A DNA stretch of 64,000 bases, from positions 1,088,001 to 1,152,000 of the forward strand of contig CAWANH010000029.1 of the NCBI GenBank assembly GCA_963783375.1, in the 5' to 3' direction. This DNA comes from Candidatus Eiseniibacteriota bacterium (GTDB lineage Bacteria > Eisenbacteria > RBG-16-71-46 > JABDJR01). Positions 2,667 through 38,581 of this stretch are shown here, one piece after another (position 1 is the first letter of the stretch; every line of letters begins with the position of its first letter). Made by a program: the position numbers and the translations under genes. Below the pieces are notes generated by a model. The model was not told the origin of the DNA. It did no database searches and worked only from the letters and a program-made list of their open reading frames with translations.

Positions 2667-3000
2667 TGGCGGAGAGGGAGGGAGAGTCGCGCTCCTCGCT
2701 CACGCTCGGCGCACGACATCCCCCGGTCGCCGTGCCCCATCCGGCGCGAGCAGGCCAACCATCCTCGATGCTTTCACATGGCGGAGAGGGAGGGAGAGTC
2801 GCGCTCCTCGCTCACGCTCGGCGCACGACATCCCCCGGTCGCCGTGCCCCATCCGGCGCGAGCAGGCCAACCATCCTCGATGCTTTCACATGGCGGAAGG
2901 AGGGAGAGTCGCGCTCCTCGCTCACGCTCGGCGCACGACATCCCCCGGTCGCCGTGCCCCATCCGGCGCGAGCAGGCCAACCATCCTCGCTGCTTTCACA
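2667..3000 (-). repeat. Tandem array of 3 x ~112 bp immediately 3' of tRNA-Ser(GGA); each unit ends in the tRNA's last 17 nt
   Basis: Units start at 2667, 2779 and 2891 (+ strand TGGCGGAGAGGGAGGGAGAGTCGCGCTCC...). Nearly identical; the third has a 2-nt deletion and 1 substitution. Confidence 0.95.
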
Positions 3001-3091
3001 TGGCGGAGAGGGAGGGATTCGAACCCTCGGTACAGTTACCCGTACACACGCTTTCCAAGCGTGCTCCTTAAGCCAACTCGGACACCTCTCC
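3001..3091 (-). tRNA. tRNA-Ser(GGA)
   Basis: Reverse complement GGAGAGGTGTCCGAGTTGGCTTAAGGAG-CACGC TT GGA AA GCGTG-long variable arm-GAGGGTTCGAATCCCTC-CCTCTCC G CCA. Confidence 0.97.
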
Positions 3092-3175
3092 GCGAAGCCG
3101 AAATGTCGGTGGGACGCCTGATGCCGGTCCGCACCCCAAAACAAGCCCGGTCGGGTCACCCCGGCCGGGCGCAGG

Positions 3176-3181
3176 ATTATA
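3176..3181 (-). promoter_or_regulatory. Putative -10 box for tRNA-Ser(GGA)
   Basis: Perfect TATAAT on the minus strand ~85 nt upstream of the tRNA in a GC-rich context; -35 is poor. Confidence 0.5.
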
Positions 3182-3296
3182 CCGAATCGACCCCGCCCCG
3201 GCGAGAGAGGATCCACGCTCCGGGCCGCCCCGGTTCATCCGGGTGAACCCGATCGGTCCAGCCCCCGCTCCGGGACGAGCCCCGGCGGAGGGACCC

Positions 3297-3797
3297 CTAT
3301 TTGGCCTGGGCGTCCCGGCGGAGCCTCTCGAAGAACGCCTTGAGCAGAAGCCCGCACTCCTCGGCCATGGGTCCGGGGACCACCTCGGTGTGATGGTTCA
3401 GGGGTTCGTGGACCGAGACGTCGGTGACCGACCCGAGCACCCCCCGCTTGGGATCGGCGCTCGCGAACACGACCTTCCGGAGCCGGGCCAGGAAGATCCC
3501 CCCGGCGCACATGAGGCAGGGCTCGAGGGTCACGTAGAGGTCCGCCCCCTCCAGGCGCCAGGATCCCAGGGTATTGGCCGCCGCGGTGATGGCGAGCATC
3601 TCCGCGTGGGCGGTGGGATCCTGGAGAGCCTCGTTCCGGTTGTGCCCCCGCCCCAAAATCCGCCCCCCCTGAACCACGATCGCCCCCACCGGGACCTCGT
3701 TCTCCTCCGCGGCCTGACGGGCCTCCTCGTAGGCCATCTGCATCCAGCGAAGATCCTGGTCGGGAGTGAGCGGGGGGAGTTCCTCTTCCGGACCCAT
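3297..3797 (-). CDS. tadA: tRNA adenosine(34) deaminase
   Basis: EVPVGA, DPTAHAE and VTLEPCLMCAG zinc-deaminase motifs; D-P-K-R-G. Confidence 0.93.
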   Translation of the reverse strand: MGPEEELPPLTPDQDLRWMQMAYEEARQAAEENEVPVGAIVVQGGRILGRGHNRNEALQDPTAHAEMLAITAAANTLGSWRLEGADLYVTLEPCLMCAGGIFLARLRKVVFASADPKRGVLGSVTDVSVHEPLNHHTEVVPGPMAEECGLLLKAFFERLRRDAQAK

Positions 3798-3798
3798 C

Positions 3799-4545
3799 TC
3801 AGCGACCTCCGTCGTCTCCGCGATTGTCGCCCATACCCGAGGAGGGCGCCTTCTTGATGAGGGGCAGGGTGTCCGCGATCTCGGTGGACACGGTCACCGC
3901 CACCTTCTCGATGGGCGGCGGATCCGGCACCGCCTTCTCGCTGGTAACCGCCGCGCGGTGGCTGTCGGTCGCCCGGATGTTGTACTCGGGATTGTACGGC
4001 TGGGACTTCTCGGTCTTGAGATCACTGGCCGACCAGAGCAGCGTACCGTCCGGAGCGTACATCTCTACCCGGGCGCCCACCGAGGTATCCGAAGTGCCTT
4101 CCTGACTGGCGGAGATCTTGACCTCCTCCCACTTGTTCACCTCGATCGCCACCACCGCATCGTAGCCGGTGGCTTCCAGGACCGCGGCCAGCGCCTTTTC
4201 GTCCAGCTTCCGGACCTTCTGCCAACTGCTCACCAGACGGTCGAAGTCCTCGCGCACCCCGGTCCGGTCGGCGTCCCGCATGAAAGTCTCGCGGTCGGCG
4301 ATGTAGTACTTGTTGGTGCCGCCGAGAGCCCGGGTCAGGTAATCGACCATCGCGTCCGCATCCTGATTCCCGGTCGTGTTGGCCCCGGCCAGAACCGCGA
4401 CCTTGCTCACGTTGTAGCTGTCGATGTTCGTCGCCAGTTCCGTCTTCACCTTCACCGCGCCCCGCCCCCCGCTCGCGGCCTGGCATCCGGCCATCGCAAT
4501 CGCGCCCATCATGGCTACCATCCCGATCCAACCGATTCGTCGCAT
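3799..4545 (-). CDS. Hypothetical lipoprotein
   Basis: MRRIGWIGMVAMMGAIAMAGC lipobox; GGAGG RBS; globular composition. Confidence 0.8.
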   Translation of the reverse strand: MRRIGWIGMVAMMGAIAMAGCQAASGGRGAVKVKTELATNIDSYNVSKVAVLAGANTTGNQDADAMVDYLTRALGGTNKYYIADRETFMRDADRTGVREDFDRLVSSWQKVRKLDEKALAAVLEATGYDAVVAIEVNKWEEVKISASQEGTSDTSVGARVEMYAPDGTLLWSASDLKTEKSQPYNPEYNIRATDSHRAAVTSEKAVPDPPPIEKVAVTVSTEIADTLPLIKKAPSSGMGDNRGDDGGR

Positions 4546-4623
4546 TTCGCCACCTCCTCCATCGCCCGGCGGGCGGGGTGTCTGAGGAACCCCAACCCAC
4601 CATACGCTCCACCCAACGCCCCA

Positions 4624-36664: not shown

Positions 36665-37050
36665 GGGTCTCTCCTTGATTTGAGCGTTTGATGTCGGAGC
36701 GTCGGGCGCCTGGGCCTCGCTGCCGGGCGCCCAGCCGCACCGGGTGGACGGCGCCGTTCGAGGGGGCCCGTCCGTGCCGACCCGGGGAGGCGGGACCAGG
36801 CCGGGGGAATGGCCCGGGTACCTCCTCGGAGAAGAACGGCTTCATGCCCACGTACCCCGTCACGCGGTGGGGTGTGACTCACTTTTTCGGGGGCGTCAGC
36901 GAAGCGATCCGGGGAGACCGGCGTCCGAGGGGGGGAGTAGGCTACAGGTCCGGCGCGCGACTATCGCGGGAGTGACGGGGCGCGACCCGAGGACCGGAAG
37001 TTCACCCGGGTGAACTCGGCACCCGGGGTCCCATCTTCACAGCTCAATCG

Positions 37051-37268
37051 TGGCGGAGAGGGAGGGAGAGTCGTGGCTCTCGCTTCGCTTCGCCACGACA
37101 TCCCCAGCTCGCCCTGCTTCCTCAGGCTCTGGAGGTTTACCACCTGAGTTGCCTCAGAATGGCGGAGAGGGAGGGAGAGTCGTGGCTCTCGCTTCGCTTC
37201 GCCACGACATCCCCAGCTCGCCCTGCTTCCTCAGGCTCTGGAGGTTTACCACCTGAGTTGCCTCAGAA
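37051..37268 (-). repeat. Tandem array of 2 x 109 bp immediately 3' of tRNA-Ser(GCT); each unit ends in the tRNA's last 17 nt
   Basis: Identical units starting at 37051 and 37160. Confidence 0.95.
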
Positions 37269-37359
37269 TGGCGGAGAGGGAGGGATTCGAACCCTCGGTA
37301 CAGTTTCCCGTACAACACCTTAGCAGGGTGCCACCTTCAGCCAGCTCGGTCACCTCTCC
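37269..37359 (-). tRNA. tRNA-Ser(GCT)
   Basis: Reverse complement GGAGAGGTGACCGAGCTGGCTGAAGGTG-GCACC CT GCT AA GGTGT-long variable arm-GAGGGTTCGAATCCCTCCCTCTCCGCCA. Confidence 0.97.
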
Positions 37360-37460
37360 GCAAGGCGTACAGCTGTGCATCCCGCAATCGGGTCACGGAG
37401 GGTACCACAGCCCAGAAGGAGCCCGCAATGAAGGTCGGCGTGGGTTCGCCGGGGCCGGGA

Positions 37461-37808
37461 TCAGGCCGGGATCGGCTCGGTCATCTCTCCCGAGGGGTGG
37501 TAGGTGCGATCGAAGATGATCACCTCCCGCTTCTCATCCTCCACCATCATCCGGATCCAGTGCTTGGTGCCTCGGGGAATATTGGCGAGCCGCTCGCTCA
37601 AATCGTCGCTGGCCTCGAACTCGTCCATCGGAATCCATGCCCCCCAGAGCTCCTGGGAGGTGTGTATGTGCGCCGTGGCGCGACACTGCTCCATGAGCGC
37701 CTGCAATCCCGCGAACATGGTCTGGCAATCATCCGATTGGATGCAGGCGGTAAAGTTGGCATCGAACACGCAACCGCTGAACTCGCAGAACTTGTTCTCC
37801 CTGACCAT
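37461..37808 (-). CDS. Orphan hypothetical protein (~115 aa), lower GC
   Basis: GGAGGGAG RBS, then MVRENKFCEFSGCVFD...; non-shadow amino acid composition. Confidence 0.6.
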   Translation of the reverse strand: MVRENKFCEFSGCVFDANFTACIQSDDCQTMFAGLQALMEQCRATAHIHTSQELWGAWIPMDEFEASDDLSERLANIPRGTKHWIRMMVEDEKREVIIFDRTYHPSGEMTEPIPA

Positions 37809-38082
37809 CCTGCTCTCCCTCCCGTCCGAGTCCCCGTTGACCGCCTTCCACCGGATAGACTTCTCCCCTCTTCGGGAAATGGGATCCCGCGGGGGTACTC
37901 CACTGAGCTCAAGTTTGGGGGCCACCTACCTTATCTGATGGGGATTTTCGTCCTGACCGACAAGCGATTCCAGAACCTTATCTGGATACTAGCTATTCAA
38001 ATTCGGCATCAATATAGGGTGTGGGCTTCCTGTGCCGCCCTGAGGCCCCATGCTGTTCGCCAAGCCGCCCCTGGGAGCCTTC

Positions 38083-38493
38083 CGGCGGAGGGAGTGGGAT
38101 GGTCGTCCTCAAGCGCCCGTCTCACCCGGCCACCTCCGCCCAACGATCGCCTGCGGAGCTTTCTGGCGGAGGGAGTGGGATGGTCGTCCTCCTCGCCGCC
38201 GCTCGTCGTACGACGTCCCCGAGCGCCCGGCTCTCACGACAACCTCCGCCCAACGATCGCCTGCGGAGCTTTCTGGCGGAGGGAGTGGGATGGTCGTCCT
38301 CCTCGCCGCCGCTCGTCGTACGACGTCCCCGAGCGCCCGGCTCTCACGACAACCTCCGCCCAACGATCGCCTGCGGAGCTTTCTGGCGGAGGGAGTGGGA
38401 TGGTCGTCCTCCTCGCCGCCGCTCGTCGTACGACGTCCCCGAGCGCCCGGCTCTCACGACAACCTCCGCCCAACGATCGCCTGCGGAGCTTTC
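38083..38493 (-). repeat. Tandem array of 3 x 110 bp plus one distal truncated unit, 3' of tRNA-Ser(TGA)
   Basis: Identical units start at 38164, 38274 and 38384; degenerate ~81-bp unit at ~38083. Each full unit ends in ATCCCACTCCCTCCGCCA on the tRNA strand. Confidence 0.95.
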
Positions 38494-38581
38494 TGGCGGA
38501 GGGAGTGGGATTCGAACCCACGGAGCCTTTCGGCTCATCGGTTTTCAAGACCGACGCCTTCGACCGCTCGGCCATCCCTCC
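38494..38581 (-). tRNA. tRNA-Ser(TGA)
   Basis: Reverse complement GGAGGGATGGCCGAGCGGTCGAAGGCG-TCGGT CT TGA AA ACCGA-TGAGCCGAAAGGCTCC-GTGGGTTCGAATCCCACTCCCTCCGCCA. Confidence 0.97.

Follow-up and report, generated by a model that had tools for sequence, protein, structure and literature searches.

What are the tandem repeats that stand directly behind the serine tRNA (tRNA-Ser) genes in a 64-kb stretch of a Candidatus Eiseniibacteriota genome, and by what process did they come to be there? This stretch (the window; coordinates are window positions unless they carry a C prefix or a locus handle) belongs to a source genome, G000, of 4.73 Mb that is 97% complete. A preliminary description of the window had explained the repeats either as a non-autonomous element inserted by a tyrosine integrase or as a co-transcribed array cut into tRNA-like small RNAs. 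The same foot and cap are present in the tRNA-linked repeats (TLRs) at tyrV, the lys genes and serX of Escherichia coli, and the arrays therefore belong to a known kind, of which they are a new variant that is family-wide, lineage-specific and specific to tRNA-Ser. The explanation of their origin that we place ahead of all rivals, and hold to be about evenly poised between right and wrong, is that they are a non-autonomous, gene-less single-stranded DNA (ssDNA) element that duplicates the tail of the tRNA gene.

Tandem units behind the tRNA-Ser genes

Four tRNA genes are found in the window by ARAGORN and Rfam, and behind the three that encode tRNA-Ser, Tandem Repeats Finder reports periods of 112, 109 and 110 (Table 1). 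When the downstream DNA is cut at each copy of the tRNA end, the units measure 110/112/112 bp at the GGA gene, 109/109 bp at GCT and 110/110/110/81 bp at TGA, the whole TGA array with its 81-bp unit spanning 38083-38493. The coordinates and the length of 109-112 bp given in the preliminary description hold, one TGA unit being the deleted 81-bp form, as does its observation that tRNA-Arg(ACG) is free of repeats. Its claim that each unit closes with the last 17-18 nt of the cognate gene, joined at the T-loop, is also borne out: the tail starts on the 3' side of the T-loop and is 17 nt long at GGA and GCT and 18 nt at TGA, with 2 nt deleted in GGA unit 1. The check that it had proposed for tRNA-Ser(CGA) revealed a fourth array, of five units (G000:C29:1086693-1087225), ~0.8-1.3 kb left of the window. 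Among the 57 ARAGORN calls of the genome, a downstream copy of the 3' end occurs only at the four true tRNA-Ser genes and at the transfer-messenger RNA (tmRNA) gene; no units follow tRNA-Sec, tRNA-Gln(CTG) or tRNA-Leu(CAG), in which parts of the tail are also found. The units are not a long-read artefact, because they are present with their junction on short-read contigs: one (X3) contains 38353-38492 exactly, another with a GGA unit has a depth of 11.8 against ~5 for its flanks, and a strain variant is seen among them, in runs that may include the source sample and whose contigs settle neither copy number nor circles.

In all, 58 units were cut, of which 44 were distinct and at least 95 nt long, and 43 remained after one false low-complexity match was dropped; deleted units of 81, 75 and 30 nt were kept out of the unit statistics. 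Each unit consists of a linker, a covarying hairpin and the last 17-19 nt of the local tRNA, 102-114 bp in total. The linker is fixed in length (51-59 nt, mean 55.4, standard deviation 1.7, 28 clusters), unstructured (mean z -0.6) and barely alignable between genomes (identity 0.41 against 0.35 when shuffled). Its first bases read N(N)AGG in 20 of 31 representatives, where 1.6 would be expected, and GTTC(A/G), a possible T-arm remnant, is found in 9 of 31 linkers against 2.7 expected, which is suggestive only. The 5' halves of the units, described earlier as differing between loci, are not independent, the CGA and GCT linkers scoring 0.68. Compared with the rest of G000 for a CRISPR-like guide, the linkers of first units had no match elsewhere; the linker-start pattern, tried as a search probe, performed at chance level. 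Behind tRNA-Ser(GGA) of G005 (L049) there is no array, and TAGGTTATG-like words recur at ~11-bp spacing, resembling the linker start motif.

The hairpin opens with GGGA, which pairs with TCCC at the start of the tail. In an alignment of 21 rows (20 of the 31 distinct hairpins and the TGA hairpin of G004, with six point or deletion variants and five shorter G006 forms omitted), 94% of cells are paired and 8 of 14 pairs are changed on both sides, a level reached by 0 of 500 shuffles and by no slid control, with the structure set by eye and the shuffles ignoring relatedness. The earlier statements that the stem is kept despite sequence change, and that one hairpin family recurs at several tRNA-Ser genes, stand. 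Both ends of the unit body are constrained, one by the length and start of the linker and the other by the hairpin.

A variant of the tRNA-linked repeats

In E. coli K-12, 22 tRNA-linked repeats have been listed at ten loci, among the TLRs being the 178-bp repeats of tyrT/tyrV and RtT, and they end in 18-19 bp of the upstream gene; their function is given as not known as of 2021 (PMC8144298, citing Egan and Landy, 1978, and Rudd, 1999). In the same source, TLRs lie directly 3' of a tRNA or rRNA gene in the same orientation, with 3' 18-19 bp identical to the end of that gene and one to five copies per locus (PMC8144298). The tRNA-Ser arrays have this position and orientation, their copied end is 17-18 nt in G000 and up to 19 in relatives, and their copy number is 1-6 where present, which we count as the same. 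The preliminary description had likened them to the repeats of E. coli tyrT, and the likeness is closer than it claimed. Five fetched E. coli loci hold units at tyrV (3x178), four lys genes (98-156) and serX (3x181), and the fetched proL, serW and lysZ hold none. All of these fetched units end at the same T-loop junction as the tRNA-Ser arrays, all except the 156-bp lysQ unit have the GGAT...ATCC foot, and most have a GCGAAGC or GCGCAGC cap with tandem G.A pairs, on the tRNA strand only and in the junction-proximal hairpin, the cap form GA-GC-GNA-GC-GA being common to both groups; foot and cap as a criterion were read from the E. coli sequences, not from PMC8144298. The hairpin model R1, built from the window's family only, picks out the E. 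coli apical module weakly (E 0.1-1), and there is an exact 13-nt match between the two groups. Beyond the cap, however, no sequence can be aligned, and the tRNA-Ser units have one long hairpin instead of a multi-hairpin core, a fixed 55-nt linker and, in G000, a restriction to tRNA-Ser, with arrays at all four isoacceptors. The best E. coli match to R1 lies in the tyrT-tyrV spacer (L283:1384-1402) and is close to the upper stem of a unit in genome G206; separately, 16 nt in the trailer behind the GGA array of G006 (L042:7137-7261) match the E. coli TLR cap hairpin exactly, and a long tract rich in C and T comes next.

At gathering score, Rfam recognizes only the tRNAs in the window; at E<=1, the five array loci yield only tRNA and two families below gathering score that are centred on tRNAs. 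The RtT model, which we take to be RF00391, has no match at gathering score in the window, nor at E<=1 in the five array loci. The Ssn ssDNA nucleases (GIY-YIG, cd10448) have been proposed to read strand-specific NTS/SRM hairpins as ssDNA (Chenal et al., 2025, PMC11893778), as is proposed here, and small GIY-YIG proteins do occur in tail-duplicating cassettes at tRNA genes in other loci found in this work; the SRM consensus, in contrast, is in 0 of 43 units on either strand, no small GIY-YIG gene lies beside the arrays or in G000, and the units are not dispersed. The word tRNA is absent from the main text of PMC11893778, and the supplements of that paper and of PMC8144298 may list tRNA-adjacent cases. 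REP/BIME-2 elements with TnpA-REP (RAYT) resemble the arrays in being tandem units of a hairpin and a variable linker, conserved within a locus and variable between loci (PMC3333891, PMC3733652), but the tRNA-Ser units have no unpaired GTAG/CGTC tag (their TGTC/CGTC lies inside the stem) and no REP-iREP dimers, and G000 holds 13 copies only, all at tRNA-Ser, and no Y1 transposase. The arrays thus have the TLR layout and share the TLR cap, and are not members of Rfam RtT, Ssn/SRM or REP/RAYT. A CRISPR array or casposon was also considered and rejected: there is no Cas1 (PF01867) in G000, and the units within an array are mostly identical, where a CRISPR array would have unique spacers.

Distribution among relatives and beyond

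A search pattern composed of the foot, a junction other than the T-loop and the Ser tail matches 6 of 206 genomes of the class, all in the window's family (5 of 7 relatives), and finds nothing in the remaining families of the class. Of the 20 tRNA-Ser genes in the five family genomes that have long contigs, 17 bear 1-6 units, which answers the earlier question of homologues beyond the three loci; across the family loci the copy number is 0-6, deleted and partial end units included. Arrays are also present in two Candidatus Eisenbacteria records (L114, L176), and five metagenome contigs add more. Model R1, which misses the shorter G006 forms, gives strong matches only in the window's family among 151 genomes of the phylum; six weak matches in other families (E 0.0015-0.037) have no tRNA nearby and were rejected. 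One unit (58.6 bits) is found in a Deltaproteobacteria-titled record (L158, G206), and 0 of 80 relatives of that genome have one. It sits in the same tadA-tRNA-Ser(GGA) block as in the window (L262/L158), and the G206 TadA is 76% identical to that of the window, a value inside the 74-96% seen for family members and metagenome contigs (other families 53-56%), so the unit probably moved with the block; by this comparison, the block and its one unit have probably been shared horizontally between the window's family and G206.

More widely, a scan of GTDB covered 120 loci out of ~430 estimated; 63 of the 120, spread over several phyla, have an intact tRNA-Ser-type end with a copy of the tail no more than 420 nt behind it. 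On viral contigs, the family pattern found 4 loci, one of them TLR-like (L221), and two E. coli-type patterns found 34 and 5 loci, none with a GIY-YIG gene. In a literature search that mostly did not cover subscription papers, nothing was found on these repeats outside E. coli, nor linking them to ssDNA or GIY-YIG.

Caps, tails and the sharing of units between loci

The apical loops of 31 hairpins comprise 17 GNA triloops, 3 GNRA, 3 GNYA and 8 others or none, and GCGN(N)AGC is present in 17 of 31 on the tRNA strand and in 0 of 31 on the opposite strand (shuffles: mean 2.7, maximum 7). According to a review, this mini-hairpin motif is unusually stable as DNA and much weaker as RNA, and occurs at ssDNA priming sites (PMC13037366). 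Among the variable arms of tRNA-Ser at the same loci (73 genes), 0 have a GNA, 48 a GNRA and 4 a UNCG loop, a control that is imperfect because tRNA arms have constraints of their own; genome G054, marked unpublished, served only here and as one negative. The strand bias recurs in other phyla, with the mini-hairpin on the tRNA strand in 34 and on the opposite strand in 2 of 63 units (9 against 2 of 27 clusters). These patterns suggest that the caps are DNA mini-hairpins, pointing to DNA rather than to a small RNA. Of the cap form described earlier, the strand-specific G.A pairs remain, with two corrections: the GCT cap reads GAA-GC-GAA-GC-GA, and the TGA loop, GGCG, departs from the GN(N)A rule. 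DNA and RNA folding energies do not discriminate, and the DNA parameters may not score mini-hairpins. An argument from the lagging strand was not used: GC skew puts tRNA-Ser co-oriented with replication but is about zero at the loci, and the argument was dropped also because the tmRNA repeats hold GAA loops on the opposite strand.

The tails are cognate: 42 of the 43 distinct units, with three tail types, match their own tRNA over tail positions 1-16, the sole departure being the 2-nt deletion of GGA unit 1, and the 75-bp G004 unit bears a fourth type. The units of other phyla, with 11 tail types, likewise have cognate tails in 61 of 63 cases. Among 31 representatives, hairpin identity is 0.83 within a genome for the same tail, 0.74 within a genome for another tail and 0.59 between genomes for the same tRNA, and linker identity is 0.57, 0.44 and 0.41, respectively, metagenome contigs being grouped by assembly as an assumption. 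Judged by these identities, unit bodies follow the genome and not the tRNA locus. The G000 GGA hairpin is identical to that of the G002 CGA locus, and two different bodies are mixed within some arrays (G003, G006). The tail-body-tail layout suggests target duplication rather than an integrase circle that imports a donor tail.

Proposed mechanism and its weight

The ssDNA-element reading starts from the layout, the cognate tails, the covarying hairpin, the tRNA-strand caps, the fixed linker length and the within-genome sharing of units, all of them observed, and adds a nicking step and an enzyme that we infer. A body of ~90 bases (linker and hairpin) would insert behind a serine tRNA gene and duplicate the gene's last 17-19 bases, and units would then be amplified and swapped among the four serine tRNA loci. 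The hairpin would fold when the tRNA strand becomes single-stranded, during replication or in an R-loop, and would be the site to which an ssDNA nuclease supplied in trans is presumed to bind; nicking at the hairpin foot near the T-loop, followed by strand-displacement or recombinational repair with the tail as homology, could add one unit and leave the tRNA intact. The nick-and-extend amplification models of REP/BIME elements (PMC3333891, PMC3733652) are the template for this scheme.

The best candidate enzyme class, proposed tentatively, may be the 83-84-amino-acid GIY-YIG proteins of tail-duplicating cassettes in other bacteria. GIY-YIG genes lie inside tail duplications at L174, L075, L226 (of the same class as the window), L263, L290 and L302. 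In L174 and L075 the start of the gene coincides with the tRNA end or lies at most 10 bases from it, and behind the gene come a copy of the T-arm, its loop occupied by a hairpin, and then the tail; the same cassette occurs at tRNA-Met (L226:1405-1803, G140) and at tRNA-Asp (L263, G206), and at other tRNAs in genomes that also bear gene-less tRNA-Ser units. The L174 protein has no relative on viral contigs.

Several observations weigh against the ssDNA-element reading. Co-occurring GIY-YIG genes, suggested as a check by the preliminary description, were sought as small proteins and found neither in G000, where a profile of 15 of them has no match at E<=1, nor in the five other array-bearing genomes, and G000 also has no Y1 transposase (PF01797), Cas1 or reverse transcriptase; present turnover is therefore probably due to host recombination and slippage. 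A GIY-YIG gene is present in only 4 of 120 pattern loci, the cassette hairpins belong to other families (R1 does not score L075, L088, L174 or L226), and the examined nuclease cassettes keep both T-loop halves, which the tRNA-Ser units do not. All 13 matches of R1 in G000 lie inside tRNA-Ser arrays, and neither BLAST nor the model finds a solo hairpin there, so no insertion at a new site is shown. Plain gene conversion may yield concerted evolution or part of the unit sharing. At one pair, U-G replaces U-A in 9 of 21 rows, which fits RNA equally, the folding z-score is stronger for RNA than for DNA (-3.7 against -2.5), and the E. coli rRNA-operon TLRs (RrA/B/F) are transcribed, processed and bind Hfq and CsrA (PMC8144298).

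Among genomes with gene-less units elsewhere, three further proteobacterial and one Armatimonadetes genome have no small GIY-YIG gene, and a fifth genome has one but no tRNA close to it. The small GIY-YIG gene in G005, a member of the window's family with no arrays seen at its CGA and GGA genes, was rejected as a candidate, having no tRNA nearby. As a separate observation, the 1-Mb genome G293, of the Candidate Phyla Radiation, contains six genes for small GIY-YIG proteins (L290, L293, L296, L299, L301, L303), every one of them next to a tRNA gene, either in front of it or behind it; several are accompanied by tRNA fragments that a hairpin splits.

A wider proposal, about which we are doubtful, is that TLRs, those of E. 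coli included, could belong, as its non-autonomous members, to a so far undescribed class of mobile elements that act on single strands, in which a small GIY-YIG protein would read a DNA mini-hairpin and drive insertion at the T-loop by tail duplication, with no integrase, DDE or HUH enzyme; the window's arrays would be a tRNA-Ser-specific branch whose fixed-length bodies are still moving between four loci. E. coli TLRs were described in 1978 and have so far been studied as RNA, and the DNA-type caps, the target-copied tail and the movement of units between loci shift the question to ssDNA biochemistry. The family is a small lineage-specific case, linked to the enzyme by layout only, and offers a clean comparative set of 43 distinct units with four loci per genome and several tail types.

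Alternative explanations

The strongest rival, though an unlikely one, holds that the arrays are co-transcribed with tRNA-Ser and cut into ~110-nt CCA-ended small RNAs, acting as sponges or 3' protectors like RtT or RrA/B/F. Units do begin at CCA on the tRNA strand, no terminator-like site is present on that strand at the GCT and TGA loci, the hairpin covaries and tolerates G-U, and the RNA folding score and the processed E. coli RNAs cited above argue in the same direction. Acceptor-stem pairing, however, is at chance (mean 4.48 of 7 pairs against 4.51 shuffled, 27 units), and 0 of 8 units with an AC tail pair at position 50 to rebuild a T-stem; forming neither stem, the units are not tRNA mimics, and a tRNA-like minihelix under the CCA end was rejected on these counts. 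The loops, GNA with all four N and GNYA, are not the GNRA/UNCG of these genomes' tRNA, half of each unit is unstructured and variable, no unit has an Rfam match, 3 of 20 family loci are without an array, and the pattern finds none in the class's other families. The small-RNA half of the preliminary description is weakened by these results.

Enzyme-free slippage seems decidedly improbable to us. Here a hairpin ending in ATCCC would stall replication, a template switch to the ATCCC of the tRNA would duplicate the interval, and gene conversion would spread the units. That no mobiliser was found in array-bearing genomes, that copies within an array are mostly identical, and that arrays often end in a partial unit (the last G004 copy stops just past ATCCCAG) all suit this account, but it leaves the compensatory changes, the fixed linker length, the start motif and the strand-specific caps shared with E. 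coli unexplained, and the T-arms of tRNA-Gln(CTG) and tRNA-Leu(CAG), which also hold AATCCC, have no units.

We regard it as very unlikely that a tyrosine integrase inserted every unit, as a minimal circle, into tRNA-Ser where the T-stem meets the acceptor stem. Integrase islands likewise leave a displaced 3' tRNA fragment downstream in the same orientation, and a 17-19-nt displaced tail fits the T-stem-region attachment class of Islander (PMC4383910); unit lengths cluster at 9.7-10.9 helical turns, and the TGA array of G006 holds a 622-bp insert with an attachment-like tRNA fragment. A donor tail would be expected, yet tails stay cognate while hairpins cross tail types; the units are ~110 bp, with a hairpin at the junction and no integrase between tRNA and fragment, none of the five tyrosine recombinases of G000 is near tRNA-Ser, and the strand-specific ssDNA cap is given no reason. 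Of the element proposed in the preliminary description, the non-autonomous nature is thus retained and the integrase route abandoned. The G006 insert itself (L043:4300-5372, tRNA-Ser TGA) contains a short open frame, closes with a piece of tRNA that runs from the anticodon loop onward and is flanked by units on both sides; from this composition it looks like a small island remnant inside the array.

Least credible of all is a domesticated host signal, a primase or restart site behind highly transcribed tRNA genes, for although mini-hairpins occur at phage and plasmid ssDNA priming sites (PMC13037366) and the hairpin is conserved across three genera, only tRNA-Ser and not other tRNA genes bear it, it was not found in the class's other families, and such a role does not need tail duplication.

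Features of the window and neighbouring repeats

Table 1. Positions of the tRNA genes, arrays, hairpins and tadA in the window
Feature	Position	Strand	Remark
tRNA-Ser(GGA)	3001..3091	(-)	host gene of array 1
Array 1, three units	2667..3000	(-)	units 2891-3000, 2779-2890, 2667-2778; unit 1 tail lacks 2 nt
GGA unit 1 hairpin	2902..2944	(-)	GGGA foot, 7-bp stem, tandem G.A, GC-GTGA-GC cap
GGA hairpins of the other two units	2792-2834, 2680-2722	(-)	
17-nt copy of tRNA-Ser(GGA) 3' end	2667..2683	(-)	at close of unit 3
tadA	3297..3797	(-)	upstream neighbour of tRNA-Ser(GGA)
tRNA-Arg(ACG)	5258..5334	(-)	repeat-free, negative control
tRNA-Ser(GCT)	37269..37359	(-)	host gene of array 2
Array 2, two identical 109-bp units	37051..37268	(-)	units 37160-37268, 37051-37159
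GCT unit 1 hairpin	37173..37213	(-)	GC-GAA-GC mini-hairpin cap; second copy 37064-37104
GCT unit 1 linker, 55 nt	37214..37268	(-)	related to linker of the CGA array outside the window
tRNA-Ser(TGA)	38494..38581	(-)	host gene of array 3; tail differs from the other three at 3/17 positions
Array 3, three identical 110-bp units	38164..38493	(-)	TGA-type 18-nt tail
TGA array hairpins	38397-38439, 38287-38329, 38177-38219	(-)	
Terminal 81-bp TGA unit	38083..38163	(-)	hairpin mostly deleted, tail end CCG

In the genus, the DNA just 3' of several arrays repeatedly holds CACCCGGG/CCCGGGTG motifs as well as short hairpin repeats (window 36990-37030; L001:8400-8650; L033, L034, L036, L216). The tmRNA gene of the family has tail-duplicating arrays of its own, 81 bp x2.9 in G000 (C3:189100-189335, L002) and, with L265-L268 as the further loci, 106 x3 in G001, 124 x5 + 206 in G003 and 45/83/45 in G004; these use a different hairpin family, the TTC loops of which are GAA triloops on the antisense strand.

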